From a virus, in the IMG/VR virus record IMGVR_UViG_3300043100_000006, positions 1 through 64,000 of that record: DNA of 64,000 nt; one strand, 5' to 3'. The position numbers and the translations under genes were made by a program. Position 1 is the first letter of the stretch; the number at the start of each line of letters is the position of its first letter. Below are positions 2,875-62,241 of this stretch, in pieces. The notes under the pieces are model-generated. The model made no database searches. It was not told the DNA's origin and saw only the letters and a program-made list of their open reading frames with translations.

Positions 2875-2887
2875 TCCACCGGGTGGA
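2875..2887. repeat. TCCACCGGGTGGA palindrome, copy 1 of 11
   Basis: Other copies at 11020, 13817, 16215, 19464 (1 mismatch), 22447, 30069, 33226, 43122 (rc), 48721 and 59450 (rc). Confidence 0.95.
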
Positions 2888-2897
2888 AGGATTCGAG

Positions 2898-3491
2898 ATG
2901 AGCGAAAGGAGTAGCACAGTGGAATTTTTCTCGGGACAGAAACGCAAGCTAACCCTGGTCGATGCCAAGATCAAGCGCAACTCGGAAGATGAGAAGCGTA
3001 TCCGGCTCGACTTTGCCATGCCCCTAACCGGGCAGTCGGAAATCGGAATGCCGCAAGAGATTGGCGCGGCGATGCGGTACGTTGGCGAACTAAAGAACGG
3101 GGCCACGGAATCAAAGATTGAAACACTGCCACTGCCGCAGACGATTCAGTTCTTTGCGACGGACAGTTCGAAGCGGGCGATGTTCGCGGCGATTGCGGCG
3201 GTTGACCTGAAGGATCTGATTGTCACGCGCCCCAAGGTTTCGGAGACCGCGGACACTTCTGCGGTCGAGCTGGCGTTCCATGCCAATTTCCCTTTCGATA
3301 AAAGCATCTGGGATTTTGTGCCAGACTATCACGGCAAAGTCTTCTGGTGCCTGTTCGAGAGAACTCAAATCACGACCGCCGACGTAGTTGCGGAGAAGGC
3401 TGGCGGGGCGGTGCAAAGCGTACTGACCATGCCGGGCGATAAAGGAAAGAAAGGGAAGAGCGGGAAGGATGCGGCTGTGGGCTCGGAGTGA
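2898..3491 (+). CDS. hypothetical protein
   Basis: 197-aa ORF with ATG just after the palindrome. Confidence 0.7.
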   Translation: MSERSSTVEFFSGQKRKLTLVDAKIKRNSEDEKRIRLDFAMPLTGQSEIGMPQEIGAAMRYVGELKNGATESKIETLPLPQTIQFFATDSSKRAMFAAIAAVDLKDLIVTRPKVSETADTSAVELAFHANFPFDKSIWDFVPDYHGKVFWCLFERTQITTADVVAEKAGGAVQSVLTMPGDKGKKGKSGKDAAVGSE

Positions 3492-3682
3492 GCAGCTATC
3501 GCAAGGCCGGCGCTCAGTGGACGGAGGACGGCAAGCAATGGGTGAGCACGCCGCTGAGCATGAATCGGTATTTCGTGGTGTGGTCGCTGAATGACGGAAT
3601 CATTCCGCTCCCAGAAGATAGGCATCCCTCGAAGCCAGTAGCGTCGGATAAGCAAGCTAAGAAGATTGGATAGGAGTTGTAG

Positions 3683-4435
3683 ATGGGCACGACCGGATTA
3701 CCGTGTGTCAAGAACTGTGGATGCTTCACAGATCGCATGGTCGATATCGACGACAGCGGCCAGAAGGCTCCGATATGTATTTGGTGCGAGGATGGCGTGC
3801 CTTGCGAAGCGGCTGCTGAGAGGAACGCGCAGCCGGTGCGAAAGATTCCGCAATCGGTTATGATTCGAGTCAGCAAAGAGGACGCCGGTAAATATCCGCC
3901 ATTGCCGACAGAGAAACCAAAGCGCAAGAAGGCTAAAGTTCTCGAACCGGCGATTGTGGCAGCGGCGCCAGGTATCGCGAAGAAATTACAGGCAACGGTG
4001 CAGGACGCGATTAACGATCTGGAATCCGAGGCAGTGAGGCCGGATGCGGATCAGTGGAAACGAGGGGCGATGACAAAGAACGTTAGCAAAGATACGCTCA
4101 AAGGGTTCATTGACATAGCGGTAGCGCTGACCATGTTTAAGCAGGGTGTAAGCGTTACGAAGATTGCGAAGGAGAAGGGCTTTCCGGTCTGGCGCTTCTA
4201 CCAGTCCGCGGAGTGGGCGAAGGCGAAGGCTACGCTGGGTACACAGAAAGCGGTGCCGCGGAAGGCGACGAAATCGAGGACGGTGGCGCGGTTGCACCGA
4301 GCCGCCACGAACGGGAACGGCATTGCGCCGGTATATCTCAGCGAATCAGCGATGGATAAACTCTGGGAGGATTGTACGATTGAGGACAAGGCGGAGATGA
4401 TCACCGGGTTCATGGCAAAGGTGCATCCGGCATGA
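3683..4435 (+). CDS. hypothetical protein, N-terminal Cys motifs and possible HTH
   Basis: CxxxC/CxxC pairs; ALTMFKQGVSVTKIAKEKG HTH-like segment; AGGAG RBS. Confidence 0.65.
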   Translation: MGTTGLPCVKNCGCFTDRMVDIDDSGQKAPICIWCEDGVPCEAAAERNAQPVRKIPQSVMIRVSKEDAGKYPPLPTEKPKRKKAKVLEPAIVAAAPGIAKKLQATVQDAINDLESEAVRPDADQWKRGAMTKNVSKDTLKGFIDIAVALTMFKQGVSVTKIAKEKGFPVWRFYQSAEWAKAKATLGTQKAVPRKATKSRTVARLHRAATNGNGIAPVYLSESAMDKLWEDCTIEDKAEMITGFMAKVHPA

Positions 4436-4629: not shown

Positions 4630-4644
4630 GAAAGGAATGGACCT

Positions 4645-4893
4645 ATGAACGCAGTAACGTTCGACAGCGTTAAGCAGATTATCGTTGAGCAGATCGGCGT
4701 GGACGCCGAAGAGGTCACGCCACAGGCGAACTTCGTCGACGATCTGGGCGCGGATTCCCTGGACACGGTCGAACTGGTTATGGCCTTTGAGGAAGCCTTT
4801 GATCTGGAGATTCCAGACGAAGAAGTAGAGGGGATTCGGACGGTGCAGCAGGCAGTGGACTATCTTGCTGCCAAGAAAATGAAACGGCAATGA
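4645..4893 (+). CDS. acpP: acyl carrier protein
   Basis: [30 protein letters not shown] with the phosphopantetheine Ser intact. Confidence 0.97.
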
Positions 4894-5429
4894 GCGATGG
4901 GTTCGATAGTCGGGTGATGGTAACATTCCACCGCGGAGTTATAGCGTCGATCTTTCGCGAGTGCGACCGATTCGACACGCACGAGACAGGCGGTGCGCTA
5001 ATCGGAACCTATCGCGGAACTCCCAAGTCTGGAATCTCAATCACCGTTAAGGGCGTAATCGGAGCAGGTCCGAACGCATCGCGCACGGCTACCAGCTTCT
5101 TCAAAGACGGCGAATATCAAGAGCGCATCTTTCGAGAGATTGAGCGCAAGCATCCAGAGATCGAGCATTTGGGCAACTGGCACACGCACCACATGAACGG
5201 CTATCCGACACTGAGCGCCGGTGACCGCGCAACATATCACCGCAACGTGAACTCGAACAAGCACAACACGGATTTCTTTTATGCATTCCTGGTCACGGAA
5301 AGCGTCAAGCCTGGGTCGGTAGATCATCACTACCGAGTGAAGCATTTCATCCTCTACCGCGGCGATGAGGGCGAATACGAACTGGCTGCAAGCCAGATGA
5401 CTACGATTGATGAACCGGCGCTGACATGA
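4890..5429 (+). CDS. JAB/MPN+ (Mov34) metallo-isopeptidase
   Basis: ETGGALIG...HLGNWHTHH...PTLSAGD = complete E...HxH...SxxD JAMM motif. Confidence 0.9.
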
Positions 5430-5935: not shown

Positions 5936-6063
5936 GATTTGTGTTGTGCTCCAGCTCTGTCAGTGATACAACTTTAGGCAATCCGTAAACGGTTGCGAGG
6001 AGTTGGACCCCGAGCGGGCGGCAGTTCATCCCAATGGCTGCCGCCCATCCTGAAAGAAACGCG

Positions 6064-6645
6064 ATGCCGGAAAAGCAGGAAGCGAAATCGAAGCCTCGAA
6101 CGATCCGCACGATAGCCGACCTGAAAGCTACTCCCGACAAAGAGAATCCAAGAGTGCGAACGCCGCGCAACCGGAAAGTAATCGAGCACAGTTTGCGTGC
6201 GCTCGGCGCCGGACGGTCGATTCTAGCGGACGAGAACGGGCAGATCATTGCGGGGAACGGAACGGCAGAAGCAGCAGCGAAGGTAGGCATCACGAAAGTG
6301 CGAGTGGTTCCCACGGACGGGAAAGAGTTGATTGTGGTGCAGCGGTCGAATCTGACGGAGAAACAGAAGAAAGAGATGGCGATCGCAGACAACGCTTCAG
6401 CACTCTACAGCGAGTGGAGTGAAGACATCGAGGCGATGAGCGAAGGCGTTGATCTCGAACCGTACTTCACGGCGGCAGAACTGGATAGGATTGCTGGCAA
6501 AGCTACAGATGACTTTCAAAAGAAAGAGCAAGAACTGGTCGAAGGATTCGCCATCATCATCGAGGGCATCAACGAGGAGCAACAACTGAAATTGCTCGAA
6601 CGCCTAAGCGCGGAGGGACTCTCTTGCCGAGCGTTGACATTCTGA
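6064..6645 (+). CDS. ParB/Srx N-terminal domain protein
   Basis: NPR...IEHSLRALGAGRSILADENGQIIAGNGT...AIADN; alternative start at 6034. Confidence 0.85.
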   Translation: MPEKQEAKSKPRTIRTIADLKATPDKENPRVRTPRNRKVIEHSLRALGAGRSILADENGQIIAGNGTAEAAAKVGITKVRVVPTDGKELIVVQRSNLTEKQKKEMAIADNASALYSEWSEDIEAMSEGVDLEPYFTAAELDRIAGKATDDFQKKEQELVEGFAIIIEGINEEQQLKLLERLSAEGLSCRALTF

Positions 6646-7718: not shown

Positions 7719-7783
7719 CTGAAACCCACGTCATGCGCGGCAAGGAAGTGGCTAAACCCTTGATTCGGTGCGCGGTATAAACC

Positions 7784-7812
7784 TTGACAGATTTAAGATT
7801 CACTAGTATTCT
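7784..7812 (+). promoter_or_regulatory. sigma70-like promoter with GATTCACTAGTATTCT box
   Basis: TTGACA-17 bp-TATTCT. Confidence 0.8.
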
Positions 7813-7846
7813 CATCTCAGTCGTAACCAACGACAGGAGACACAAA

Positions 7847-8722
7847 ATGAATCGCAACTTCCGAAGCAACTTCACTTCCAATCAACCCCTGACAATCGAA
7901 CAAATCGCGCAGTACGCGCCATCCGCCCTAGCTGTGGAGCCGCACATCTCGCGCTCCTCACGCTACGCTTACATCCCAACAATTAACATTATCGAGGGGA
8001 TGATCAAGTCTGGATTCCAGCCGTTCAAGGCGACACAGTCAATCTCAAGGATCGATGGCAAGCAGGCGTTTACCAAGCACATGATTCGCTTCCGTCATCA
8101 GGACTCAGGCCAGATTCTTGTTGGCGACTCAGTTCCTGAAGTCGTGCTGATCAACTCTCATGACGGAACAAGCGCTTACAAATTGATTGCTGGCATCTTC
8201 CGTTTTGTCTGCTCAAACGGCATGGTCGTAGCGGAGTCCACTACGGGCAGCGTAACGATCAAGCACCAAGGCAATGTGCTCGACAACGTTATCGAGGGCA
8301 GTTATCGGATTGTGGAAGACTCGAAAAAAGCGCTGGGTGCGATCAATCAGTGGTCGCACTTGCAACTCACATCTGGCGAACAGTCTGCACTTGCGGAAGC
8401 AGCCCACGTCATGCGCTTCGCTGATTCCGAAGGCAAAGTCACCACTCCGATTCTTCCCGCTCAGTTGCTTGCTCCTCGCCGTCATGATGACGCTGGGAAC
8501 GATCTCTGGCGGACGTTTAATCGCATCCAGGAGAACGTGATCAAGGGCGATCTCCACGGGCGCACCCGTTCGAGCTATGACGAGCACGGCCGATTCGTTC
8601 CTAGCCGTCGCGTCTCGACCCGCGAAGTCAAGGGCATCGATCAAGACGTTCGTCTGAATCGCGCACTGTGGACTCTTGCAGAGAAGATGGCTGAACTGCG
8701 TGGCGTCCCCGTCGCTGCCTAA
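7847..8722 (+). CDS. DUF932 family protein
   Basis: H.SRSSRY.YIPT, FTKHMIRFR, NSHDGTSAY..AGIFRFVCSNG, DLWRTFNRIQEN. Confidence 0.9.
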   Translation: MNRNFRSNFTSNQPLTIEQIAQYAPSALAVEPHISRSSRYAYIPTINIIEGMIKSGFQPFKATQSISRIDGKQAFTKHMIRFRHQDSGQILVGDSVPEVVLINSHDGTSAYKLIAGIFRFVCSNGMVVAESTTGSVTIKHQGNVLDNVIEGSYRIVEDSKKALGAINQWSHLQLTSGEQSALAEAAHVMRFADSEGKVTTPILPAQLLAPRRHDDAGNDLWRTFNRIQENVIKGDLHGRTRSSYDEHGRFVPSRRVSTREVKGIDQDVRLNRALWTLAEKMAELRGVPVAA

Positions 8723-10992: not shown

Positions 10993-11049
10993 GAGCCTAT
11001 TTTCCGGCTACCTTACGCCTCCACCGGGTGGAGAGATTGGAGTTCTACG

Positions 11050-11271
11050 ATGCCTTGCATGTGCGGAGACACTCACTGTTCGAGTTGCGGACCTGCTCAG
11101 GGAAATTCACGGTGTCCAATCTGCCGAGCATGGGCGGATGACGGGTGTGAACACTTTGACGAAGAGACCGGCGAACTGAAACCGGAGTTTCGGGAGGAAG
11201 CCGAAAAACTGGTAGCACTAGAGACTGCCGCGTTCAAGGAAATTATCGAAGGGGACGATTTCCCGTTTTGA
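11050..11271 (+). CDS. small Cys-rich hypothetical protein
   Basis: MPCMCGDTHCSSCGPAQGN; follows palindrome copy at 11020. Confidence 0.65.
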   Translation: MPCMCGDTHCSSCGPAQGNSRCPICRAWADDGCEHFDEETGELKPEFREEAEKLVALETAAFKEIIEGDDFPF

Positions 11272-11272
11272 A

Positions 11273-11301
11273 TTGACACCTAGCGGATTCACTAGTATTC
11301 T
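11273..11301 (+). promoter_or_regulatory. sigma70-like promoter with GATTCACTAGTATTCT box
   Basis: TTGACA-17 bp-TATTCT. Confidence 0.8.
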
Positions 11302-11319
11302 TCGCTTTGGAGAAATAGC

Positions 11320-12155: not shown

Positions 12156-13046
12156 GTGCAAGACGCAATGGACTTCGGGCAGCCGCGACAGAACGCATTT
12201 GCATTCCCGGTTTCGCTCGCCATTAAATACCAACCGAAGATCAAAGACTTCATCGGACTCGAAGGCCCGAAGCGTACATTGCTCGGCCTCATCAAGAAGC
12301 CGAGGCCGTGCGCGATACTGGCAATCGGAGCGCCGGGTACGGGCAAGACTTCCGCTGGCATGGCGCTTGCGGAAGAGATGCCGACCAGCCTGAACCATCT
12401 TCGGTCACAGTCTTGCGATGTTGCCGCACTGGAAAGAACGTGGGAGCACTGCCAATACTATCCCGCGAAGGGCAATTTCCACCTGGCGCTCATCGACGAA
12501 ATCCAGCACACAAGCGACAAGACGCAACTGCAATGGCTCTCGTATGGCGACGGGACGGCATCGTTGCGCCCGATGATGTTCGGCGGATTCGAGGCTGGGC
12601 AAGCGCCACCTGTAATTTGGTATCTGACTTGCAACGGTGTGGGACCAAAGCAAACGGACCCGCCCACGGGATTGCTGGCGGCATTGACGCAGCGGTGCAT
12701 GGTGCTACGCTTTGAAGCGCCGGAACCGGCAAAGACTGCCGCATACCTGCGATGGGTTTGGGAGCGCGAAGGTGGACCTAAACGATACCCGAGCGAGTAT
12801 TTTGAATCGCTGGCGAAAGGGATTGGCGTGCGGGATGCGCTCATGCGGTTGGACGTGGAGTTGCTGGCGCCGCGGAGTCCAAAGGAGATTCGTGAGCAAC
12901 TGGCTGCGGATCGGGAAGTAGCGGCGAAAGCGGAAGCAGCGAGAAGCGAGATTACTTTGGTGGACCCGGAGCGGAGCGCAGCGGCACGGCGAGCATGGGT
13001 GACAATGCGAACGGACAGAGCAAACCAAGCGGCGGCAGCGCAGTGA
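12156..13046 (+). CDS. AAA+ ATPase, clamp-loader clade, paralog 2
   Basis: LAIKYQP, GAPGTGKT, LIDE, QRC; colinear with 9212..10108. Confidence 0.85.
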   Translation: MQDAMDFGQPRQNAFAFPVSLAIKYQPKIKDFIGLEGPKRTLLGLIKKPRPCAILAIGAPGTGKTSAGMALAEEMPTSLNHLRSQSCDVAALERTWEHCQYYPAKGNFHLALIDEIQHTSDKTQLQWLSYGDGTASLRPMMFGGFEAGQAPPVIWYLTCNGVGPKQTDPPTGLLAALTQRCMVLRFEAPEPAKTAAYLRWVWEREGGPKRYPSEYFESLAKGIGVRDALMRLDVELLAPRSPKEIREQLAADREVAAKAEAARSEITLVDPERSAAARRAWVTMRTDRANQAAAAQ

Positions 13047-13873
13047 AGCGAAAACCACAACCAAAGAATTTCCTCCGCACGGCGACGCTGGAGAGCCTTG
13101 AAGGAACGAAGCTGACTGCCATCTCCTTGTTCAGCGGATGCGGCGGAATGGATCTTGGAATAATGCAAGCTGGCTTCGAGGTCCGCGTGATGATCGACAA
13201 TGATAAAGCCTGCTGCGACACTCTCGCCTGCAATTTTACGGATGCGGGTTGGCGAAAACACAGCAGAGGGAAGCGGCCAGTATACGGCAAGAACCAGAAG
13301 CGGGAGCCGGTCATCTTGCACCGCGACATCTGCAAAACGAGCACGGCGGAACTCCTCGAAGCGGCCGATCTGCAAGTCGGTGAGTGCGGCGTGGTGACAG
13401 GCGGGTTCCCATGCCAAGGATTTTCGACCAGCGGCAAGCGAGAGATCAAGGACCCGCGCAACAGTTTGTACCTGCAATGCGTGCGAGTGGTCCGCGAAGC
13501 GCTGCCGCGATTCTTTATTTTCGAGAACGTCAAAGGTCTGATCAGCATGGGCAACGGTGCGATTATCAACCGAATATGCGGAGACCTGGCGGCGGTCGGA
13601 TACGAAGTGGTTTGGGAATTACTGAACGCGGCAGACTACGGAGTGCCCCAGCATCGAGAGCGCGCGTTCTTTATCGGTCGCAGACTTGACATGCTGGTGC
13701 TTCCGACAGGAGCCAAGAGGCCGCATCTCCACATGGGCGTGGCGGGCCGATACAAGCACCCGGCATTCTTCGAGAAACGTCATAAACTGGCCACAGGCTG
13801 GCGGCTCTCGGCTTCTTCCACCGGGTGGACAGATTCGACCCTAACCCACAGGCAGGGGCGTCCAAGGGGCTAA
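13043..13873 (+). CDS. C5-cytosine DNA methyltransferase, apparently lacking motifs IX/X
   Basis: SLFSGCGG, GFPCQGFS, FENV, YGVPQHRER. Confidence 0.85.
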   Translation: MKRKPQPKNFLRTATLESLEGTKLTAISLFSGCGGMDLGIMQAGFEVRVMIDNDKACCDTLACNFTDAGWRKHSRGKRPVYGKNQKREPVILHRDICKTSTAELLEAADLQVGECGVVTGGFPCQGFSTSGKREIKDPRNSLYLQCVRVVREALPRFFIFENVKGLISMGNGAIINRICGDLAAVGYEVVWELLNAADYGVPQHRERAFFIGRRLDMLVLPTGAKRPHLHMGVAGRYKHPAFFEKRHKLATGWRLSASSTGWTDSTLTHRQGRPRG

Positions 13874-13915
13874 AATCGCCCCAAAAACGACCCTAAAATA
13901 CCCTTACGAATTGTG

Positions 13916-14499: not shown

Positions 14500-16937
14500 A
14501 TGCCGCAAACAAATCCCCAAGTAAAACTCCGGCTAGACGGCCAGCTTTCGCACAAGGAATGTAATACGGTTCTCGCAGCGTTGCGCTTATTCCAAACATG
14601 CCTCGGCAAGACGGAGGAAGATCCAATCGAAGTGTCGATCACAGACATTCTGCTGATGGAGCACTTCGAAGACGGCGAGGAGCCATTAACCGAAACCGAG
14701 ATTGACATGCTGTGCGAGCGCATCAATCTGGGTCCACTGCCCGAGCAGATCGCGACTGAAGCGCTGGCGTGCATCCCGGTGCGAGTGGGCGGCGAACTTA
14801 AATCGCATCTCGCTTTTGTTCGGTCCGGCCTTGGTATCGACAGCCACACCCTATGCCTGAAATCATGGACGCGGAAATCCGGCGAGCCATTCTCCGCGAA
14901 GTACGATTGCGCGGAATGCTGCGAGAAGCAGGAGGCGGCGTCATGACTCCTCATCTCCAAGCACCAACCGAAGTAGTGACCAAGATGGTCCAGTCCAACC
15001 GCTCTTTCATGACATGGGACGGCGAAAAGAATCGCACGCTGAAAATGTACCGACCATGCGATTGTGGGTGCGACCGGGCGAGGTTCGGATACCTCTCTGG
15101 TTCGGATGACAAAGGGAACGGGCTCACGATCTACGCGAAGTCTGAGAAGCAATATCAGGCGATGCGGAAGATATTCGGGGGTGCCGTATGAAGTGGACAG
15201 TTCATCCAGAGCAGGGCGCCGAGTTCGCAGAGTATCACGAATCCGACGCCGGAAGAGTTGAGCGCACACCGTCAGGATGGGATGCTTGGGTGTACATCCC
15301 AGAAAAGCTGCGGTTTGGCCATGCGACAAAGCACAAGGTAGGGGAGTGCTACACGACGGCGGTGTCCGCAAGGGGCGCTGTTATTCGAGCATGGAAAAAA
15401 TACGCGCCCTTGAATGAAGGTGTGGCATGAAAACCATCCTGTGTCCAGAAACCCTCTCCATCTCCCACGCCTGTGCCATGCTTCGCGAGATGGAAGCGCA
15501 AGGCATCATCTCAAACCTCGGTGGCTCATGGGAACCAGGCCGCAAGTGTCCAGAGGATGGAATGCGGCTTTACAACGATGCGTGGTTCGAGTATCGCGGC
15601 CAGCTCGTGAACGCGCATCATTTCGGCATCGTGTATGCCGTGTTCGATGTGCTGAACGGCAGGCCGGCAGCGGCAGAGTATTCCGAGTGGGGACCGCCAA
15701 AGAAAGCCGAGGACCCTTGGGTTGGGCTGGACGATCTGCGGCAGAAGTTGGAGGCCGTCCATGCCTAACGGGCAGTGGGTGTTCACGCCGATTACCGAGG
15801 AGGATCGCAAGCGCGGGTTTGTAACGCTAAGGACCGGCGAACGAGTCGAATTGACCGAGACGCCGCGACTTTCGGAGATCGAGATTCGGAGGTCGCGCTG
15901 CTTGGTGGTTGTGGCTTTCTGCGTTGCGGCCATCGTCCTCATTGTTGGGATATGGCGAGTGTGCGGAGCATGATTACCAGCACAGAACAGAGGCTCATCG
16001 TCGAGGCATCTATCCGGCGAAACATGCTGGCAATTGCGGACGAGATGGACCGCATAGCGGAGTCAGGCATTGAGTTGCCGGAAGTGCCAGGAGTGGTAAC
16101 GGCGTTCACGATGGGGCAGCAGGCGCGCAAGGAATGCGCCGAACGAGCAGGGCAGATTCGAGCGCTGTACGGGAACTTTACTTTTGGGCGGCAGCAGAGA
16201 GTGAACTAGATTCCTCCACCGGGTGGACGGATTGGAATTGACCATGCAGAGAAAAAGCGATGCGACGACGTTGCTCGGTGCGGCTCTGGTAGCGCTGGGT
16301 AACAGGAACTTTGAAGGCGTCGCAGATCGACTGCAACGCTCGCGGGTGATGATACGAGCATTTGCGGAGCAGAAAGGATCCCCCGTCGTCGAGGAGGTCG
16401 AGCCGCATCTTTTATTCGGCTCGACCTCTGGCATTACGAGTTTGGTGGTATCGGCAATTACGAGCATCTCGAAAAACAATCTCCAGGATGGGTACATAAA
16501 GGTGCGGGATGCTGGGCTGATGTTGAAGAAGATGGTTGAGCAGCGCGGTCGGAAGCGGGTGGGTGTATGAGCCGATGTGATGTCTGCCACGAGCCCATCG
16601 AGAAGGGCGAAGGTTTATTGCACAGCACGGAGCGGCTACTTGATTCCAGTCCAGAAGTGATGGGCTTCGCATTCTATCCGTGGGCCGACGTACCGGAGCG
16701 ATTCCCCATCGGGCGAATTCACAAGCGGTGTTTGCGGACGCAACTCCACAAGTACCTTGAGAGATTTGAGATGGGGCGGTTGGCGCTACCGGCTGCGCGA
16801 ATCATCATCACGAGGAAGAAGATGGCAGGGAGGGCAGCGCGATGAGGAACGCTCTGGAACTCTGGATACTGGACAAGATAGATTCAGCAATGCTCTGGCT
16901 GATCTATCTAGGGAGCGCCAAGGTTCAGGGTTCCTGA
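14500..16937 (+). other. run of ~9 small tightly coupled hypothetical phage genes
   Basis: ORFs 14500-14946, 14943-15191, 15188-15430, 15427-15768, 15761-15973, 15970-16209, 16244-16570, 16567-16845, 16842-16937, many linked by ATGA overlaps. Confidence 0.65.
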
Positions 16938-19105: not shown

Positions 19106-19504
19106 ATGGGAATCGCTGACTTCATGGCCGATTACGAGCGAAGCACGGAACGAAATCCCTTCGCCTCTGCCGAGCGAGTGTGGCGCGCGAAAGCGGCATT
19201 CCGTCTTGCGGCATTTGATGGTCGCGTGGCTTTCAGTATTCGTTCTTTGCAGCGGGGCTGCGGGTATGGATCGGCAGCGTTGCTTTGGCTTTGCGACCTG
19301 GCGGACAAGCATGGAGCGATCTTGAGCGGGGTGATTGAACCGATGGGCAACCTACGGCCACGGTTGACGGCTGGGCAGTTGCGGGCATGGTATCGGAGAA
19401 ACGGATTCGCAGTAACGCGGGATGATCGCATTTGTCGAGTGCCGATGGGGATGGCGGAATCTTTCCACCGGGTTGAGACTTTAGAGGCAAGGAGAACGAG
19501 TTGA
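19106..19504 (+). CDS. GNAT acetyltransferase-like protein
   Basis: QRGCGYGSAAL..L...AD and LRAWYRRNGF motifs. Confidence 0.75.
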   Translation: MGIADFMADYERSTERNPFASAERVWRAKAAFRLAAFDGRVAFSIRSLQRGCGYGSAALLWLCDLADKHGAILSGVIEPMGNLRPRLTAGQLRAWYRRNGFAVTRDDRICRVPMGMAESFHRVETLEARRTS

Positions 19505-21878: not shown

Positions 21879-21990
21879 TCTACTGCCTGACCTGCGGCAT
21901 CCCACTCGCGGGTGGCGACACAGGGAACGACGGGATCGTAGTCTTTATTCATGCGATGGCCGGGCACGAACTGGATGTGCTGGAATTGCC

Positions 21991-22019
21991 TTGACCGGCC
22001 AATGATTCACTAGTATTCT
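21991..22019 (+). promoter_or_regulatory. sigma70-like promoter with GATTCACTAGTATTCT box
   Basis: TTGACC-17 bp-TATTCT. Confidence 0.8.
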
Positions 22020-22043
22020 TACCACAAAAGAAAAGAGGCTCCA

Positions 22044-22442: not shown

Positions 22443-22859
22443 TCCGTCCACCGGGTGGACAGATGCGCCCCATACCAAAAAGTGTTCGGAGGAAAGTCAT
22501 GTGGTTTGTAGCGGGATTAATTCTTGGAGCGATTGCGGGATTCTCGGCGGCGTGCCTGTTCCGGGCGCGACCTCCGAAATTGCCAGAACGAGAACCTGAA
22601 AACGTCGAGGCTTTCTATCGCCCTAGGCGTGCGGCATGAGGCTCCTGCGTTACATCCTGTCGCAGTTCGTCTGTCAGCATCGGCGACGGTCTAAGCCAAT
22701 CAGACTTAGCGGCGCCGATGCTGCTACGGAATCTTGCCTGGACTGTGGGAAGTTCCGGGAGTACGACTTCGACAAGATGATGACCGGGCCGTGGCGGGCG
22801 GATGAATCGAAGAAGAAGACATGGATGGATATTAAGCCGTGGAGCAAGAGCGAGGCGAA

Positions 22860-25103: not shown

Positions 25104-25895
25104 ATGATTCGGTCGTATTTAATTCGACTCAGGCCAACAAAACGTCAAGCCGATGAGCTTGAGCGAATTTTAGGGGTTTGCTGCGAACTATATAATGCAG
25201 CCTTGCAGGAGCGCCGGGATGCGTGGAAGGTGGAGCGGAAGTCGATCAGCTACTACGATCAAACGAAGGAGTTGACGGAACTACGAACTCTCGATGCGGA
25301 AACTGCCTCTGTACCGTGTCATATCGCCCGCGATCCGTTGCGCCGGGTAGCTAGAGCGTTCGACGCTTTCTTTCGACGATGCAAGCAGGGCCAAACTCCA
25401 GGTTTTCCCCGTTGGCGATCCAAGAAACGATATGACAGTTTCGGCGTTGAGTGTCGAATTGACGGCGATATATTGCTCATTCCGTGCATGGGGCTGCGAT
25501 TCAGGAGCCATCGAAATATCAAAGGAACTCCACGTCACTGTGTAATTATCCGTACCGGGTTGAAATGGACTGCTAGAATCGCCTGTGAGATAGGACCAGC
25601 GCCGGATAAGCGACCTATCTTTAATCCGGTCGGCATCGACCTTGGACTTGAGAACTTCCTGTACTGCTCCGATGGTACGTTCGTGGACAATCCACGGTGG
25701 ACGGCGGAACATGTTCCCGCATGTACGAGTGGGCGGCAGACTGGCTCGTCGCGGAGATTCAATTCAAGCCATACGCCCCAGAAACGCGACCGGGAGGGGC
25801 CGCTAAATGACCGTATCCAACGAGCGCGAATTTACGGGCTGGCGCTTCGTAAAGCCGTCAGGGTGCGGTTCATTCCGGTCGTGGCTACTGTATAG
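25104..25895 (+). pseudogene. tnpB: C-terminally truncated TnpB (IS200/IS605 OrfB)
   Basis: Y..RLRPT..Q, LYNAALQERR, AFDAFFRR...PGFPR, RuvC-I VGIDLG...SDG...NPRW; homology stops at ~25711; no RuvC-II/III or Zn finger. Confidence 0.85.
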
Positions 25896-28749: not shown

Positions 28750-30276
28750 CTGGGCTGGATTTCGAGTCTGTGCGGAGAGAGGAGCGGGGATGCTTGGAAC
28801 ATTGATTGGAATCTTTGGCATACTAACGTCGGTATGGTTGCAGAACTGGCTGGCTGCGTCTTGGGCTTTAGCATTCACCTTTATGGCAGAGGCTTCGCGG
28901 ATAAACGATAAGCGTGAGCGGTCTACTAGGAGGGGATGATGCCGACTAAGCCAATAGGCAGCGATTTCGTTGAGGAGGTCGCTGAGCACAATGTCCGCTG
29001 CTCCGAATGCCGCTTGCTGATCGTTGGCGGTCAGACCTGCCTCGTATCGCGCAAGGATGGCAAGGTTAAGAAGCGCGTATGCGGCGAGAATTGCAGGCTG
29101 GAGTTCGATGCGCGATTTTGGCAAAATGCGGCACGACGAAATCAACGAAGGAGGGACCGTGGCTGACTCATTGAGACAAGAGCGCGCGCGGCAGGCACGA
29201 GCAAAGCGCGGCTATACCGAATGGACTGATGGATTGGTGGCTAACTTCGCCGAGCAGGAGGAGCGGCTACTCGTTCGGGAGATCGTCGCTAAACTACGTG
29301 AGACTCGTGACCGCCGCAAGCAATTTGGCGATGCTGTCAGCCAAGCGGCAGCGGCAGAATTGGATTATCAGGCGTCCGAGCTTGAGCGCATCCACGGCCT
29401 AGAGCCGGAGAAGGAGAGGAATAATCAATGAACCGAGAACTAGATGGCGAGATTGCGGAAATCGTCTATGGCTGGAAATTGACGCACGTCGGCCCGGATG
29501 CTCAAGGACAGAACGAGTGCGACATTCTCTCGCCTAACGGTAAATTGCCGCAAGGATTCGAACTGCCACGGGTCGGCAAGATTCACCGCGCATATCTTTG
29601 TCCGTCATAAAAAGCCCGTCGTATTCTGGTTTGAAACTTACGTGGAAGCGGCGGCAGAAAAGAAAGAATAGACCTTACAGTCTTGAGAGGAGATGGTGAG
29701 AGATGGAAAAGACAACGTTTTGGGCCGATACGCATGGGAACCGAAGCACAGTTAGGTGCGGCAATGAAGAAGTACTGACCGACTGCCGTTCCTCGGAGGC
29801 GCGCGCCATCGCACGCCAATTGAACGATGTCTTAGCGAGAGCTATGCAAGAGCAGCGTCCAGCGGAAGTGCTAAAGAAATCTATCGGTAAGATGAGTGCT
29901 GCGGAGAAGCGCGCCGCCCTGATAACTGAATATGCCGTGATGCGCGTCTTGGATCATGAAAACTAGCCACGGGACGTGAATCGTAGAATATGCGTTGTCA
30001 AATCTGAATCGGAGGACAAACCCTGGAATGAAGTTTCTAATCGCTGCACTCTTGATGGCATCGTGCCGTCCACCGGGTGGACAGATTCGGCCCCTCTTTA
30101 TTTTAACCTTGACATTCCACAGCCGCATGTAAGAGACTCCATTCAGAGTAGTTCTCGCTTTCTTTTGTTAGTCCGCGTGGTTTAGCGGCGCGCCCCTCGA
30201 GAAGGCCTACCCTGGCGAACTGTGGGTGCTTCACAAGTAGACACTCCTGCTGTCCCAAACGACATTGCTGTTATTC

Positions 30277-30303
30277 CCCGCCAAGGTTGGCGGGTTTTGT
30301 TTT
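30277..30303 (+). terminator. intrinsic terminator preceding late region
   Basis: CCCGCCAA-GG-TTGGCGGG followed by TTTTGTTTT. Confidence 0.75.
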
Positions 30304-30331
30304 GAGAGGACTGAAAGCGCATCCACCTGAT

Positions 30332-30700
30332 ATGAAAAGAACAGAGACGGCGGTCCGCCTCGTAGACGAGCATATGCAGTTCCTGAAGTTTACGAGTGAG
30401 GAAGACGGCATTTCTAAGCGACGCTCTGGCTTCTGGCAAGAGGTCTACCACCCCACCACGGGCAACTTCTACGCCCTGCAGAAAATAAAATTCCTTCCGA
30501 AATCTAGTGACCATTCCAGCCCATGCGGGATTACCGCGTCCGAATCCTTAGGAAATGTCGGGATTTGGGATGGGCTTTTGCCGGAGGAAGGCGGGACTGT
30601 TCCGGTCGGAAAACTTCGTGCGGACAAACTGAAATTAAAGATGTGGCCCTTTGAGGGCGACAACAAAGCGGTGCGCGTCTCGTGCTTGGCACGAGCGTAA
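30332..30700 (+). CDS. hypothetical protein
   Basis: 122-aa ORF, first gene after the terminator. Confidence 0.55.
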   Translation: MKRTETAVRLVDEHMQFLKFTSEEDGISKRRSGFWQEVYHPTTGNFYALQKIKFLPKSSDHSSPCGITASESLGNVGIWDGLLPEEGGTVPVGKLRADKLKLKMWPFEGDNKAVRVSCLARA

Positions 30701-31990: not shown

Positions 31991-32001
31991 GAGGAAAGAA
32001 A

Positions 32002-32214
32002 ATGCAGCGAGGAATTGTGAAGTGGTTCAACGACGCCAAGGGTTACGGGTTCCTTGGCCGCGAAGATGGGGGCAAAGATGTATTCGTCCATTTCACAGCT
32101 ATTCAGATGGAAGGATACAAGAAGCTTGAGGGCGACGAGCAGGTTGAGTTCGAGATCGTAGAAGGGCCGAAGGGCAAACCCCAGGCAGCGAATGTGCGGC
32201 GGCTCGAAGCATAA
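32002..32214 (+). CDS. cspA: cold shock protein
   Basis: [14 protein letters not shown] (RNP1), DVFVHF (RNP2), QAANV. Confidence 0.95.
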
Positions 32215-33112: not shown

Positions 33113-34364
33113 GCGACGGCGACCAGACCCCTAACCGCCTTGGTGGGCCGACCTACCTACGGGCGGGGTGGCTGGGAAGGTCAAACCGACAGGGCGGGTG
33201 TCGGCCCGCCCAACGTCGTGATCTCTCCACCGGGTGGAGACTTTCGGGAAGTTATGACAAGCGAAGAGTACGTTAAGGTTGAGCATCCGCAAGCGAGTTG
33301 TTTCTTCACGACGACTTATTGGCCCGGTTGCGGCACGCATAAAAGATGGCTCGTCACGCTGACGCCGGTTCACAGTGTGAGCAGGGGCGATGGAGAGACG
33401 CCAGAGGAAGCATGGGAGACTGCTGCTCAGTGGGTGCGCTGGCGTAAAGAACTAAAAGAAGTCAAGGAATCCTTCTCGAAACTTTCGGGAGTTTTCGCTA
33501 CAGCGGAACCGTAGCGAAAGAGGGACTGGTAGGACACCGGCTGTAAAGATTACATGTTCGGACACCTTAGTCCCTCATAAGTTCAGCGGGAACAAAATTG
33601 TTCCGGTGGGAACATTGGAGGCAGGCATGAGCGAATCGAACACACCGAACGGCGCTTGCGGGATGCCTCAGAAGCAGCCGCAGCAGGCAGGGCCGAACGT
33701 GCTGCCTCTGGGGCGAACGACGGGCGCGGTGACACCGAGTGCGCCAGCGATTAGTCCAGCGCAGCCTGTGGGGCCACAGAAGGCGGATTATCAGTAATGG
33801 AACCGGTAAGTCCAGTGCTGCCATCGTCCGGCGACCTAGAGGAGATTTTCGCGGCATCGGACGGCTCGGACAAATACGAGCGTCTACCAACCTTTCGGAC
33901 GGACAAGGCAGTTATTAGCCGATGGAGATTGACAGACGAAGAGCGGCAGCACATCGCGGACGGCGGCGATCTGTTTGTGTGCATTCTGAACTTCGGGCAA
34001 CCAATATGGCCAATCATGCCGATTGCTGCATCGCCCGAACTGGCGCTTGAGACGCTGCTGCGAGTTGAGGAGCATGTATGAGAAAGCCAGTCTTCAAGCC
34101 GATATTCATTTCACGGTTAGCGATTCCGATGTCACCGAAAACGCGGTCGCAAAGGTTCCGCGCATGGCTGGAGAAGTGGCTGCCTGTACGATTCGGTCCG
34201 CGCACGTCCGCGTATCCCTTGGGCGATGTGACATGCGAGTACACCCCGAAGCCAAGAGAAGCGCTACTAGGCGACGATAAGACCATTGAGACATGCCGAG
34301 ATCGCTTCAATAACATCAGGTTTGACGGAACCGAGCCGTACATCCCCCCACCTGAGAGCATCGC

Positions 34365-42241: not shown

Positions 42242-43403
42242 GATGGCGCAATATCAGCCCGACCCAGCACCGATCACGCAGCACGGAATGGGTCCGTGGA
42301 CGAAGCCAGTATCACCACAGCCTCCAGTGACACCGGGAACGGTGAAAGCGCAACCGCCTGAGAAGCATCAAGGGAGCGCAGATCATCCACAAGGCAGACC
42401 GCCGAAATGAGTGAGCAGGGAGACTTCGCGAAGCAGGTTGCCGACGAAGCCGCGTTGCTGATTGAGATGAAGCGGTTGGACCGCAAGAAGCACACGGCAT
42501 ATCTGTGCGGCCAGCGTGCAACCTCGATGGGCATGATGCGAGTGTCGCCGTACTACGAGGATGGGGCAGCGAACGCGGCGTTCTTTGCGGGGTTCGATGG
42601 CAGGGATGAGCCGACGCTGGATGAACTACTCGCTCCGGTGCTTGAGACGACAAATAATGGCGTATCCGCTTAATGTCGAACTGAATGGGCCGCCGCAACC
42701 AATCGCTGGCATCCAGTCCTGGAAATGCGGCATGTGTCCGTTTGAGTTCGTTCATATCGAACCAGAAGAGACAATTCTCGCGGCGTTAAAAATGAGCGAG
42801 CATCTATTTCTGATGCACGGCAAGTCAATGAGCGAAGTTCCTGTGCACTGCCAGCAGCACTAATTCAGGAGGAAGTCATGAGTAGGGCACGGCAAGCGAA
42901 GCAAGTAAAGAACACGGTCGTAACGGCGAAGTGCAAACTGAGCCGCGAAGAGTGCAAGGACGCAAACTGCCCGGTGCACGGCGAGCCGAACGACGAAGCG
43001 CCAGGTCCGGCGCCAGCAACGAAGGGCGCGGAGAAACTGGAAGCGGCGGAGGAAGAGGGCCGCAGGATCGCGGCGACTGGCCACGCGATTCCGATTACCG
43101 CAGTTGAGGCGGACGAATCCCTCCACCCGGTGGACTTGCCGGGTCATGTGCTCACGATGTTGCGCGAGGCGCACGACACGATCAAACACATTCAACATCA
43201 GAACGATTTCACGCGTGACCTTTTGAGGCGGATGGAAAATGTACTGGAGCCGCCTCCGGAGTTGATGACGATCGAAGAGGCACGGCGGCGTTTGGGCGTA
43301 GGTGATGTGATTCGATGCAGCGTAAAGCCGGACCAGTTAGCAGGATAAGCAAGGCACGCGCACGAAAATTCAAGTGGCGCGATGCGCCAGACAGAGGAAT
43401 TGT

Positions 43404-48689: not shown

Positions 48690-48716
48690 GCCGTCCCAAA
48701 AAGGACGGCTTTTCTA
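48690..48716 (+). terminator. intrinsic terminator after capsid region
   Basis: GCCGTCC-CAAAAA-GGACGGC followed by TTTTCT. Confidence 0.8.
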
Positions 48717-48748
48717 TTTCTCCACCGGGTGGAGGGACTGGGAAATAA

Positions 48749-53852: not shown

Positions 53853-53864
53853 TGCGGAGAATGA

Positions 53865-56751: not shown

Positions 56752-56789
56752 ACGGAACGGAACGCAAAAATCTTCTAGCGCTCACCGCC

Positions 56790-58216: not shown

Positions 58217-58302
58217 TTCCCCCCCCCCCCCCCTCCACTTGTCGGGCGGAGCGTTCTGCTTCGCCCGACCTCTAACCTCATTCCCCGAAAGGAACGAAAG
58301 CC

Positions 58303-59075: not shown

Positions 59076-59163
59076 GTTTTCATTGGCTACAGACTCGACT
59101 CCCTGCTGATTCAACCATAACCCCGATTCCGAGCTAAGGCCGAAACTCAAATGGAGGGAAAAC

Positions 59164-59406
59164 ATGGAAAAGATCACAGCGGAAATAAGAGTAACAGGAC
59201 TCAAGGTTCAACCGTTCGCTTACAAAGGCAGCACTGGCGATGAGGTTGGAGGCGAATCATTAGAAATGCGGGCTGCTGGTTTCTGGGTCGATGAAAAGAC
59301 CAAGGACCACTATCCCGTATCGCTTCACATGACCGTCTATCCGGGGCACGGCGTCGTTCCCGCGATAGGCGATTGCGTGAACATCTCTGTAGAACGCAGC
59401 AGTTAG
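59164..59406 (+). CDS. hypothetical protein
   Basis: GGAGG RBS, 80 aa. Confidence 0.6.
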   Translation: MEKITAEIRVTGLKVQPFAYKGSTGDEVGGESLEMRAAGFWVDEKTKDHYPVSLHMTVYPGHGVVPAIGDCVNISVERSS

Positions 59407-59457
59407 GCGGTCCGCAGGGGGGTCGAGTCTGTAGCCAGCGACAAATCCCTCCACCCG

Positions 59458-62241
59458 GTGGAAGGATTCGAGGACAATCCCATCGACGACGTTGTTTTCA
59501 AACTGACAACCGTATACGACGGCGCACAACTAGCCGAAGGTATGTCTGGGTCTACGGCTGTGATCGAGGGCGATGTCGCCGCATGGAAAGAAGCATTTGC
59601 TTCCGCATTTACCCAGATAGAATCCAGCAACGCCGCTGTCGTTGAGTCCATTCGCACTCTCACTGCCGCGATTGACACCATCCCAGTTGCATCTACTAAG
59701 GCCGCTGCCGAATCAGGGAGCGCCTTCTCCGCCCTTACTGAGCACATCGTTAGTTCTGCTGAGGTAGCAAAGCTAGAAGCGGCCGGCATCGGCGGAGCTT
59801 TCTCTGGACTCGGCGCAATCCTCGGCGGGGGACTTGCCGTAGGGTTCCTCGCACATCTTCTCGATGAAACCAACAAAGAGGTAATCGCGCTGGGGAACCT
59901 TTCCGTGCAGAGTGGAGTGTCAATCAGTTCACTCGCAGGACTACAACTGACGGCGAGAGAACTCGGCATTGATTTCCAGGTTGTCCAGCAATCCATGACC
60001 AGGTTGGAGGCGGCGCAGGCTCGCGCCGTTGAAGGCAGCCGGGCGCAAGTGGAGGCCTTCGCGCGTATTGGGTTGACGGTCAATGAGATCAAGAATCTTT
60101 CACCGGAAGAACTGTTCAATACCGTATCCGGAGCCATACAGCACACGGGCAGTTCCGCGGATATAGCAGCATCCGCGATTACGCTTCTCGGTCGCGGTGG
60201 ACGCGCCTTAATTCCAGTATTCAAGGAATATGGCGGGACGCTCGACGAGGTAATGAAGAAACTCGGGGAGGAGAGCGGCGTCACTGAGCAAGCTTATCAA
60301 GAAGCGCTGAAATACCAGAAGGTCATGGCGGACCTTGGCGACGAGATTCGTAAACTGGCCATCGAGTCCATACCCTACCTAACGTTCGGGATACAGCACC
60401 TGTCGGCGTTCTTGGATGAAGCGAGAGCGGCAGTCGGCGAACTTGTGATCAGATCCGTCGAGTGGGTAGCGGTTAATCGTGACGTTGCGGATGCGCTGAC
60501 TGGAACTAAAAGTTTTAGCGAAGCCTATGCGGACATCAAGGTTCAGGCGGCTTTAGCAACTCAGTCCATCGCGCAACTGAACACCGAGACGGCAAAGTTG
60601 GTGAATCAGGACCTCGGCAAAACTCAAGAGAAACCAGGCGACCTAATGAACTGGGTCAACAGCCTCGACAGTGGCAAGAATGTACCATCGGGCGCAGGAG
60701 CACCGGCAGCGAAAGATAACCGCCTCGAAGACTGGAAACTACAACTTCAGCAGATGCAGGATGCGAGCAACCAGTCGCATCTGGAAATGCTGGCGCAGGA
60801 AGTGGCGTTCTGGGATAACATCCTGCAAACCGTTAAGTTGAAGACTGCGGAAGAAGTCGAGATCCGGCACACGATTGCGACGGCAAATAAAGAGTACACG
60901 AAACAGATCGAAGGCGATGTCATTCGGAGTTATCAGGAAGCGGCGCAGGCGGCGGGCGAGGGCACGGAAAAGCAAATCGCCATTCTGCAAACTCTCGAAG
61001 CCTATGTAGAGAAGACCTCGGGCAGCCAGTTCTCAGCAGAAGCCATCCACGCGCAAGAGGAGATCACGAAGGCCAAGAATGCGGCGGCGGAAAACGAGAT
61101 CAAAAACCTCTCGAAGATCGCGTCGATGAATGAGGAGATCGCCGCACAGGAAGCGAAGCGCGCGACTCTCCAAGTCCAAGAGGCGGTGAAGGACCAGCAA
61201 GCGCAGATCATCGAGCAGAAGGACCAGCAAATCAAGCCCACTGGAACCATCGGGGCCGTTGTCGACGCAAGCCAACTCCAGGCGCGGTCCTCTCAACAGA
61301 TTGCCATCGCACAGAGTGCCGCGTCTCAGGAAGAAGCAATCAGTGAACAACTCAGAGACAAACAAATCGCAGACGCGGAAGTTGTGGAGAACGCGAACAC
61401 CCAAGCCTTCGCGGCTGGTACCATCAGCCTCCAGCAATATCAGGAGGAGCACGACCGCATCGAAGGCGAGATTACAAAGTTCATCCAGCAGCAGGCAACA
61501 GAGCGCGAGGAGATCAACAAGAAACTGAACGATCAGATGGACAAGGCGGACGAGCAGGAAGCGAAGAAGATGATGCAGATTCAGGAGCAACTAACCAACT
61601 CCTTCGCGGCTGCCTTCGACAAGATGATTTTTCAGTCCAAGAATGCGGGTCAGGCCCTCCGCGATTTGTGGCAGGGGATTGTGAAAGCCATCATCGAGCA
61701 ATTTGTGAAGATGGCAACGCAATTCATCATCCAGCAGACAGTGATGAACGCAATCGCTAAGGCTTTGGCTGCACAGAAGTTGGCAACGGCAATGGCTGCG
61801 GATGAAGCGGAGCACGTCACGACGGTAGCGGCGAACGAACTCCAAGTACAGAGTTATGCGGGAGTGGCGGCTGCGGCTGCGTTTGCTGCGAATGCCGAAG
61901 ACCCTGTCGCGGCTGCTGTGGCAGCTACGGCGGCGTTCGCTGCTACAGAAGCTTTCGGATCGGCTGCCGCAGCGGAGCGCGGGTACGATGTGCCGGGAAA
62001 GAGCGGCGTGTATCCAACGTTCCTCCATCCGCGCGAAATGGTTTTGCCGTCCGACATCGCCGGCGGAGTGCGGAGCATGGTAAACAACTCGACTTCGAAC
62101 ACAAGTGCGGCAGGCCAGACATTCAACGTGCGCCAGGTGTTTGCGCCGACGATCAATACGCCATTCAATCCGGAGGAGCACGCGGATAAATTGTTCTCGA
62201 TGTTCCGCGGCAAGTTGCGGAAGTTGGGGGTGAGCGCATAA
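59458..62241 (+). CDS. tape measure protein
   Basis: 927 aa, A/E/Q-rich helical; C-terminal GYDVP...LHPREMVLP. Confidence 0.92.
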   Translation: MEGFEDNPIDDVVFKLTTVYDGAQLAEGMSGSTAVIEGDVAAWKEAFASAFTQIESSNAAVVESIRTLTAAIDTIPVASTKAAAESGSAFSALTEHIVSSAEVAKLEAAGIGGAFSGLGAILGGGLAVGFLAHLLDETNKEVIALGNLSVQSGVSISSLAGLQLTARELGIDFQVVQQSMTRLEAAQARAVEGSRAQVEAFARIGLTVNEIKNLSPEELFNTVSGAIQHTGSSADIAASAITLLGRGGRALIPVFKEYGGTLDEVMKKLGEESGVTEQAYQEALKYQKVMADLGDEIRKLAIESIPYLTFGIQHLSAFLDEARAAVGELVIRSVEWVAVNRDVADALTGTKSFSEAYADIKVQAALATQSIAQLNTETAKLVNQDLGKTQEKPGDLMNWVNSLDSGKNVPSGAGAPAAKDNRLEDWKLQLQQMQDASNQSHLEMLAQEVAFWDNILQTVKLKTAEEVEIRHTIATANKEYTKQIEGDVIRSYQEAAQAAGEGTEKQIAILQTLEAYVEKTSGSQFSAEAIHAQEEITKAKNAAAENEIKNLSKIASMNEEIAAQEAKRATLQVQEAVKDQQAQIIEQKDQQIKPTGTIGAVVDASQLQARSSQQIAIAQSAASQEEAISEQLRDKQIADAEVVENANTQAFAAGTISLQQYQEEHDRIEGEITKFIQQQATEREEINKKLNDQMDKADEQEAKKMMQIQEQLTNSFAAAFDKMIFQSKNAGQALRDLWQGIVKAIIEQFVKMATQFIIQQTVMNAIAKALAAQKLATAMAADEAEHVTTVAANELQVQSYAGVAAAAAFAANAEDPVAAAVAATAAFAATEAFGSAAAAERGYDVPGKSGVYPTFLHPREMVLPSDIAGGVRSMVNNSTSNTSAAGQTFNVRQVFAPTINTPFNPEEHADKLFSMFRGKLRKLGVSA

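Follow-up and report, generated by a model that had tools for sequence, protein, structure and literature searches.

What is the role of a palindrome that recurs, with hardly a base changed, at intervals throughout a virus genome, and what reads it? The question is raised by the virus record IMGVR_UViG_3300043100_000006, which is 102,179 bp long and of the direct terminal repeats class. Its first 64 kb (hereafter the window) contain 11 copies of TCCACC(G/C)GGTGGA, a 13-bp palindrome with G or C at its centre. The genome (G000; GC 55%) has nearly all its genes on the + strand. From the sequence of the copies, it is likely that the palindrome is the site of a symmetric DNA-binding protein of some kind. 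On balance, sequence and analogy lead us to favour a more precise reading, in which the palindromes would be loading sites, of the KorB/OB type, for an orphan ParB clamp.

The window was scanned with TCCACCSGGTGGA, at most one mismatch being allowed. As in the preliminary description of this DNA, 11 copies were returned at the same places, 10 of them exact and the one at 19464 with a mismatch (GGTTGA arm), and the centre was C only at 43122 and 59450. Chance would give 0.04 copies in the window, and the maximum over 100 shuffled sequences was 2. The whole genome holds 19 copies (17 exact and 2 with one mismatch), separated by 5.4 kb on the average and mildly more even in their spacing than random (coefficient of variation 0.61). 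There was a single two-mismatch copy genome-wide, and the number of three-mismatch copies was near that given by control patterns. This steep drop past one mismatch means that the family is sharply bounded and has no decaying members.

The conserved element extends beyond the core. We aligned 40 sites: the 19 of this genome, 13, 3 and 2 from related phage contigs and 3 from a bacterial metagenome-assembled genome (MAG). The consensus is (y)sAATCyn-TCCACC-S-GGTGGA-nrGATTs(G), i.e. a 25-29-bp palindrome of the form AATCyn-core-nrGATT. The 13-bp core is essentially invariant. At its centre, 26 sites have G and 14 have C; A and T do not occur there. The flank symmetry pointed out in the preliminary description is real: on the left, A-12 is found in 31/40 sites, A-11 in 38/40, T-10 in 27/40 and C-9 in 27/40; on the right, G+9 is found in 29/40, A+10 in 35/40, T+11 in 37/40 and T+12 in 36/40. 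The outer AATC and GATT blocks are thus comparably conserved on either side. An invariant sequence with half-sites that degenerate independently of each other is characteristic of a DNA site bound by a dimeric protein.

The same symmetry could serve an RNA. In an intercistronic hairpin, the Shine-Dalgarno-like right arm (GGUGGAG/GGAAGGA) would be sequestered until a ribosome terminating at the left-arm TAA melts the stem; alternatively, the hairpin would be a processing or stability site. The layout lends itself to this. Sites lie between a stop and a start, 4-27 nt past stops; the TAA of the upstream gene is often within the left AATC block, and the purine-rich right arm abuts the following ribosome-binding site and start codon. 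A possible modulator exists as well, a cold-shock-domain protein (31900-32214; CSD, 4e-27) conserved in the related contigs G001 and G002. The details of the sequence, however, are not those of a conserved stem. Flank positions 7-12 from the centre are Watson-Crick in 138 of 240 pairs. On the transcribed strand G-U pairs show no excess over C-A (22 versus 24), and the common left variant AAAG faces an unaltered GATT, so that no compensatory change is seen. Folding energies of the two strands are alike (means of -13.3 versus -12.4 kcal/mol, p=0.16), many copies form the inner 5-bp stem only, and an Rfam search of the element gave no family match. Moreover, it is the primary sequence itself that stays constant, with no covariation, the centre switches strand sense between orthologues, the distance from site end to start codon runs from -4 to about 40 nt, and some copies are found before promoters or at a convergent junction. 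A hairpin function is for these reasons improbable, and the occlusion of the ribosome-binding site put forward in the preliminary description is not borne out.

To place the copies relative to genes independently of start-codon choice, a copy was counted as junctional when the stop of a + strand open reading frame (ORF) of at least 60 amino acids precedes its first base by at most 30 nt. About 8% of the genome qualifies, against 9 of the 19 copies (p=6e-6); in the relative G001 the figure was 9 of 13 (p=4e-8). The location at translation starts proposed earlier thus stands as a location at gene junctions, except that one of the starts, ATG 22463, is probably not a real one: a GGAGG-preceded ATG at about 22499-22501 fits better. 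It is also correct that the GTG within copy 11 (59458) is the only start available to the tape-measure frame; in its counterparts, G001 82086 and G003 7659, an ATG is found 8 nt past the copy. Two copies had been placed inside coding sequences. This holds for 13817, a copy that a C5 cytosine methyltransferase ORF (12995-13873) reads through in its last 19 codons, and is doubtful for 43122, which may be intergenic. Short intergenic gaps may host the sites because a gene would not easily accommodate a palindrome of 25 bp.

Promoters do not, in general, account for this placement. A sigma-70-like promoter was found within 200 nt of 6 of 37 sites against a background of 5%, and a general promoter association was rejected. 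In a minority of cases a TTGACA box follows 11-41 nt downstream (30069, 76842, G001 95527, G001 102362 and G002 7516). The arrangement of copy 30069, a site and then the box, recurs at G001 53910 and G002 7516. Copy 72794 adjoins a minus-strand promoter, and at copy 72137, past the tail-fibre operon, two genes converge.

Could the element be a stop signal, i.e. an unusual terminator or a stoperator-like protein roadblock that splits the one-strand genome into units? The convergent position of copy 72137, the copies just upstream of -35 boxes (76842 here, 95527 and 102362 in G001) and the position of the bacterial copies described below, at the end of a tail-fibre-like block and before an integrase, would all suit it. 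However, no T-run follows the palindrome copies, such as would mark an intrinsic terminator (a U-tract in the RNA), and canonical hairpin-plus-T-run terminators are present elsewhere, at 48345, 48710, 75806 and 99268. Copy 48721 comes 11 nt after the end of the 48710 terminator, which would make this copy redundant. Many copies are, in addition, in 27-40-nt gaps inside apparent operons, and stoperators are asymmetric and oriented whereas these sites are symmetric. Transcription arrest as the function is very unlikely; in its roadblock version, it would be a sub-case of the DNA-binding explanation. Neither description, ordinary terminator or covarying RNA structure, applies to the element.

Comparison with relatives argues in the same direction. 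In a search of 50,697 phage records this genome had no nucleotide match. Scanning IMG/VR for the pattern returned three contigs with the motif (G001, G002 and G003), all from one sample. Scans of IMG/VR, JGI metagenomes and GTDB gave G001 or an identical copy only, plus relatives at 31-44% identity. G001 is complete (102,896 bp) and colinear with this genome at about 75% nucleotide identity; common genes are 65-85% identical and the genomes are otherwise mosaic. It has 13 copies (10 exact and 3 with one mismatch), and all 13 have a positional counterpart here, as judged by flanking orthologous genes. Two further related fragments hold 3 and 2 copies. For copies 16215, 19464, 33226, 48721 and 76842 the centre differs between orthologues (Table 1). 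Centre G and centre C being one site viewed from opposite strands, such flips fit a strand-blind, symmetric reader. With the invariant sequence, the independent half-sites and the conserved positions, they make a single dimeric protein acting genome-wide on a parS- or operator-like palindrome, one of the possibilities raised at the outset, the one that holds best on the sequence. In prokaryote genomes (596 Gb), the motif with one flank gave 111 hits, all single, which equals random expectation; a host repeat, the explanation against which the preliminary description had wanted its motif checked, was rejected on this count, and the relative G001 keeps the motif.

The boundaries of homology between the two genomes fall at the sites in several places. 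Homology blocks start or stop at copies 16215, 59444 and 78779, nucleotide homology to G001 starting exactly at 16215. The G001 homologue of the gene that follows copy 33226 (ATG 33254) sits behind another copy, G001 4037 (+4058), and the stretch that matches is 33226-33514 in the window and 4037-4318 in G001. Genome-specific insertions are bounded by copies: 72137 and 72794 surround an antisense cassette, and 13817 is beside the methyltransferase. It may be that identical 25-mers at gene junctions promote cassette shuffling. One could go further and see the copies as recombination linkers or remnants of small mobile elements, similar to repetitive extragenic palindromes (REP), to miniature inverted-repeat transposable elements or to the promoter-stem-loop cassettes of T4-type phages, which shuffle genes and have no binding function of their own. 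The homology blocks, the gene found with its upstream copy at different loci and the bounded insertions would be explained. On the other hand, the element is only 25-29 bp long without further conserved ends, and the conservation in position of 13/13 G001 copies, with no decaying ones, implies purifying selection. Mosaic junctions fall at gene boundaries anyway, and shuffling may be a by-product of identical 25-mers. We see barely any likelihood in mere linkers. An element derived from REP and its tyrosine transposase (RAYT) or from IS200/IS605 was rejected, a Y1_Tnp search having found no Y1/RAYT transposase in either genome and the 596-Gb occurrence being at chance level.

Which protein might then read the site? 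The favoured candidate is a ParB of 581 amino acids encoded at 96605-98350 of the genome, outside the window, with ParB_N (1e-24) and helix-turn-helix (HTH) domains (HTH_ParB, 1e-12). It aligns over 174 residues with Spo0J of T. thermophilus (1VZ0, 5e-37), the GERRFRA CTP-binding box being intact, and matches KorB (8QA8) at 3e-16, Spo0J and Noc being better matches. Against the Pfam KorB domain it scores 18.8 bits (E=0.0016; cut-off 22.3 bits). The top NCBIfam match is PRTRC_parB, with 173 bits and below the 278.6-bit cut-off, and the N-terminal 185 amino acids match nucleoid_noc (4e-43, below the family cut-off). Over its first ~210 residues, the AlphaFold model (pLDDT 86.5) resembles ParB-parS 6T1F (TM-score 0.83), Noc 7NFU (0.78) and KorB 8QA9 (0.72), while the Cys/His-rich C-terminal 350 residues had no PDB match among the Foldseek matches listed. 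The region after the HTH looks, by its sequence, like a Zn-binding extension. Its Cys/His clusters (residues ~230-370, genome 97300-97720) comprise C240, C243, C262 and C267, which are invariant, and C330, C358, C363 and H366, which are conserved in at least 90% of homologues. The family is large, with more than 1000 homologues of 530-640 amino acids, and several named matches come from Acidobacteriota MAGs.

Each of G000 and G001 has one ParB_N gene, the two proteins being 74.5% identical; further relatives stand at 49-55% identity. The recognition helix, GKEE(S/A)Y(V/I)A(K/R)RLKL, is kept in the six closest homologues. It is identical in P0010-P0012 (GKEESYVAKRLKL) and differs in P0007-P0009 and P0013 (GKPE(T/S)HVV.RLRL or GKDVAHVTKMLKL). 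Of these homologues, P0008, P0010, P0012 and P0013 are encoded on contigs of roughly 94-102 kb, P0007 and P0009 on shorter ones of 27-34 kb. ParB was also the only recognisable sequence-specific DNA-binding family common to both genomes in a survey that compared about 90 window, L144 and L145 proteins with Pfam and searched genome-wide for HTH_3, sigma region 4 and Y1 transposase. The HTH_3 search found no Xre-type repressor common to the two. The binders named in the preliminary description have to be abandoned: 2340-2870, 3683-4435 and 6034-6645 have no homologue in G001, which bears the motif, and 6034-6645, described as ParB-like, matches no ParB model, the real ParB being the one beyond the window.

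The closest ParB matches in the phage database are themselves long orphan ParBs, from the cultured temperate phages VarioGold of Variovorax (38%) and Aval of Acidovorax (35%). Both phages have dispersed, parS-like 16-bp palindromes. In VarioGold (OP296522), GTGCAGAnnTCTGCAC is present in 3 exact and 3 one-mismatch copies over 39 kb, one of them within parB; 30 shuffles never reached three copies of any palindrome with 7-bp arms. In Aval (OP131589), GTGCACACGTGTGCAC is present in 2 exact, 2 one-mismatch and 1 two-mismatch copies, the last within parB. Three control phages (B3, Aussie and ThpS-P1) had no palindrome with three or more copies. The VarioGold genome paper (PMC9658991) mentions neither the palindrome nor parS.

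The plasmid RK2 offers the nearest parallel, with 12 OB sites of S centre. KorB, the ParB-family CTP clamp of this IncP plasmid, loads at OB, slides and silences distant promoters; the core of the OB oligonucleotide, TTTAGCGGCTAAA, is a 13-bp odd palindrome (PMC11790492). Both systems combine a ParB-family CTPase that has an HTH with a 13-bp odd palindrome of G/C centre, in a dozen or more copies replicon-wide. In both, a -35 box follows closely on some copies and other copies are remote from any promoter, KorB clamps being able to slide from their sites. They differ in that the replicon is here a phage, without IncC/ParA partner or identified KorA-like clamp lock, the sites have outer AATC/GATT sub-sites and the protein is 581 amino acids long with a Cys-rich C-terminal half. 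By analogy, the present system would work most like KorB/OB, yet by score its ParB falls short of the Pfam KorB cut-off. The integrative and conjugative element (ICE) ICEclc has BisD, a ParB-like clamp that possesses an additional domain, loads at bisS (GAGCTATCCCCnGGGGATAGCTC) and spreads over at least 50 kb, and the Pseudomonas parS, TGTTCCACGTGGAACN, contains TCCAC/GTGGA half-sites (PMC12409273). These half-sites are present in our palindrome, split by three bases. An extra C-terminal domain, an odd palindrome with a free central base and long-range control of mobile-element genes bring BisD close to the present case. ICEclc, however, has two bisS sites 2 kb apart, versus 19 dispersed ones here, and a BisC partner acting at promoters that has no known counterpart here.

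Other systems are more distant. Noc of Bacillus (7NFU, 7OL9) is a ParB paralogue without ParA partner that binds many dispersed palindromes of CCCGGG-like centre. It is like our protein an orphan and would resemble it in having many sites, but is chromosomal and tethers DNA to the membrane. In L5, a temperate phage, the immunity repressor reads stoperators that lack symmetry and are aligned with transcription, and the start-associated sequences (SAS) of cluster K phages stand at a fixed short distance from the start codon. With these the present sites have in common that they are 13-bp motifs dispersed at phage gene junctions; both analogies, drawn in the preliminary description, break down over symmetry and variable start spacing, and no repressor or integrase was found. 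The prophage-plasmid N15 has four separate inverted-repeat (IR) centromere sites for SopB, according to a passage of PMC7205306 that cites Ravin and Lane 1999. It is again a phage genome with several separated inverted repeats for a ParB-type protein, but SopA is present there, the function is plasmid partition and the sites are four, not 19. Here, a search for a ParA-type ATPase (AAA_31) gave no match in G000 or G001 when 14 of 14 control genomes matched, the gene directly after parB had no family match, and the sites are spread over 102 kb, with no copy in parB. The system is hence not a classical ParABS one: it has the ParB, not the ParA or the clustered parS.

How would such a system operate? 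The palindrome would be recognised symmetrically, as double-stranded DNA, by a phage protein that is a dimer. If ParB behaves as do KorB on RK2, BisD on ICEclc and Noc, its dimers would be loaded at all 19 sites, would form closed clamps there with CTP bound and would pass onto adjacent DNA by sliding. Given the mean site spacing, the whole genome would thus be within clamp reach. The purpose may be genome-wide transcriptional control (silencing, insulation or activation), or the organisation and maintenance of a non-integrating genome, or both; no tyrosine or serine integrase was found in G000 or G001.

A few copies are bacterial. The Acidobacteria MAG JABCZL01 (6.8 Mb) has 3 exact copies versus about 0.3 expected by our estimate. 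Each ends a ~4.3-kb paralogous block in a tRNA-adjacent island and is followed, 250-290 bp downstream, by an integrase gene, of which the family was confirmed in 2 of the 3 and is presumed in L162 (the C1 island). In the Acidobacteriota MAG CAVTKB01, a copy is about 240 bp upstream of an integrase (89% identical). The block starts with a homologue of gene 32456-32776, which codes for a coiled-coil protein; this protein (88-106 amino acids) and a weak tail-fibre similarity are all that islands and phage have in common. The islands point, by their sequence, to Acidobacteriota as the host. They may be satellites or prophage remnants with a cis-site common to the phage. Their copies are the main argument for a reader other than ParB; another possibility is that the islands respond in trans to the protein of the phage. 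In a far-reaching version, the phage would be a non-integrating phage of Acidobacteriota with an orphan, Zn-finger-extended ParB as master regulator, and the islands would sense or hijack this ParB for a BisD-like activation of their excision; we give this little credence. If true, it would amount to satellite-helper signalling via a sliding clamp.

Several observations weigh against ParB as the reader. What links it to the motif is co-occurrence and analogy; parB has no adjoining copy, and the distance to the nearest is 950 bp here, on the upstream side, and about 4 kb in G001. More than half of the phage proteins are without recognisable fold, which leaves room for an unrecognised reader, and the near-exclusive stop-site-start placement is also compatible with a role in translation or at the RNA level. 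The more distant ParB-bearing records G004, G005 and Microcystis phage yong2 have no repeated palindrome, so that the association of ParB with palindromes is not universal. Lastly, island copies occur singly, and no phage-like ParB is on the same contig. This last point would suit a different reader of the same symmetric double-stranded site, such as the product of 2898-3491 (also given as 2883-3491) or the coiled-coil protein. The former, directly past copy 1, is among the best conserved genes (87.6% identical in G001) and has no family match; the latter is found together with the motif in three phage genomes and in one Acidobacteria MAG, there in three paralogous islands. Neither of them has a DNA-binding signature, however. 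In a feature search, the neighbours of 2898-3491 were clusters of hypothetical viral proteins that have no Pfam domain, which gave no link to the site, and the coiled-coil gene is the first of a block that includes a tail-fibre-like protein, so that its role may be structural. Neither the Protein Atlas nor PHROGs was informative on 2898-3491, 30287-30700 or the island genes. ParB, in contrast, belongs to a family proven to read palindromes and is conserved here, and we consider it rather unlikely that a protein of another kind is the reader.

Table 1. Copies of the palindrome in this genome, in bacterial islands and, for their own palindromes, in two cultured phages
Sequence	Position	Centre	Surroundings	Counterpart
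Window, copy 1	2875..2887	G	27-nt gap, stop 2868-2870 to ATG 2898	G001 35582
Window, copy 2	11020..11032	G	27 nt past stop 10992, 17 nt ahead of ATG 11050	G001 43675 (probable)
Window, copy 3	13817..13829	G	3' tail of C5 cytosine methyltransferase ORF 12995-13873; promoter-like site downstream near 13915	none in G001
Window, copy 4	16215..16227	G	5 nt past stop 16209, 16 nt ahead of ATG 16244	G001 47648 (C)
Window, copy 5	19464..19476	G (mismatch G11 to T)	24 nt ahead of TTG 19501, helicase-like gene	G001 50985 (C)
Window, copy 6	22447..22459	G	4 nt past stop 22442; next convincing start, GGAGG-preceded ATG, ~40 nt downstream	
Window, copy 7	30069..30081	G	320-bp intergenic region; TTGACA box 27 nt downstream, before gene 30287-30700	
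Window, copy 8	33226..33238	G	between stop 33112 and ATG 33254	G001 56583 (C)
Window, copy 9	43122..43134	C	inside ORF 42878-43348, or between ORFs 42931-43107 and 43148-43348	none in G001
Window, copy 10	48721..48733	G	15 nt ahead of ATG 48749, terminator (~48690-48720) upstream	G001 74735 (C), G003 893 (C)
Window, copy 11	59450..59462	C	full AATC...GATT at 59444-59468; holds GTG 59458, sole start in tape-measure frame	G001 82086, G003 7659
Genome beyond window	72137			
Genome beyond window	72794			
Genome beyond window	76842	G		G001 95527 (C)
Genome beyond window	78779			
MAG JABCZL01, L160	4945			
MAG JABCZL01, L161	4382			
MAG JABCZL01, L162	11530			
MAG CAVTKB01, L074	7787			
VarioGold	5756			
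VarioGold	15561			
VarioGold	21002			
VarioGold	29452			
VarioGold	31899			
VarioGold	37753			
Aval	5488			
Aval	7662			
Aval	13369			
Aval	20625			
Aval	38568			

Other features of the genome were recorded along the way. A promoter family of the form TTGACA-N7-GATTCACTAG-TATTCT is found without mismatch at 7770-7815, 11260-11305 and 21975-22025 of the window and with one mismatch at 1535-1580; outside the window, it is found at 76892, 85212 and 82196 of the genome and, on the minus strand, at 72767. Its 10-nt spacer element, GATTCACTAG, with ACTAGT at the centre, is much more conserved than sigma-70 would require, and G001 has it too. An inverted copy lies just past the -10 of the parB promoter (genome ~96630). 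By analogy with the OA of KorA, a second regulator, perhaps a partner, may have its operator in GATTCACTAG. Used as an IMG/VR query, the promoter element GATTCACTAGTATTCT brought no additional relatives. The methyltransferase ORF that reads through copy 3 covers only positions 2-164 of the 324 of its Pfam model and is absent from G001. The CCSGG/CCGG at the centre of the palindrome is a typical target of C5 methylases, which might be a reason for the G/C-only centre. A JAB/Cap3-like isopeptidase (4890-5429), a DUF932 protein (7784-8722) and ParB together recall the PRTRC or leading-region cassettes of ICEs and plasmids. Two transposition-related genes are present: a short TnpB-like protein (25104-25895; HTH_OrfB_IS605 and a partial OrfB domain), whose G001 homologue sits in a G001-specific 17.8-kb insertion without palindrome copy, and an IS1595-family transposase (genome 101285-102163, minus strand).

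ParB CTP clamps are known from chromosome and plasmid partition and, lately, from long-range regulation on a plasmid (KorB) and an ICE (BisD). If the reading that we favour is true, loading sites throughout a genome, together with a ParB without ParA, would extend the clamp principle to the control of virus genes or to the organisation of a virus genome. The system would be a compact one, made of one protein and one 25-bp site, and the same layout is found in the cultured phages VarioGold and Aval. The occurrence of the same site upstream of host-island integrases hints, besides, at cross-talk between mobile elements.

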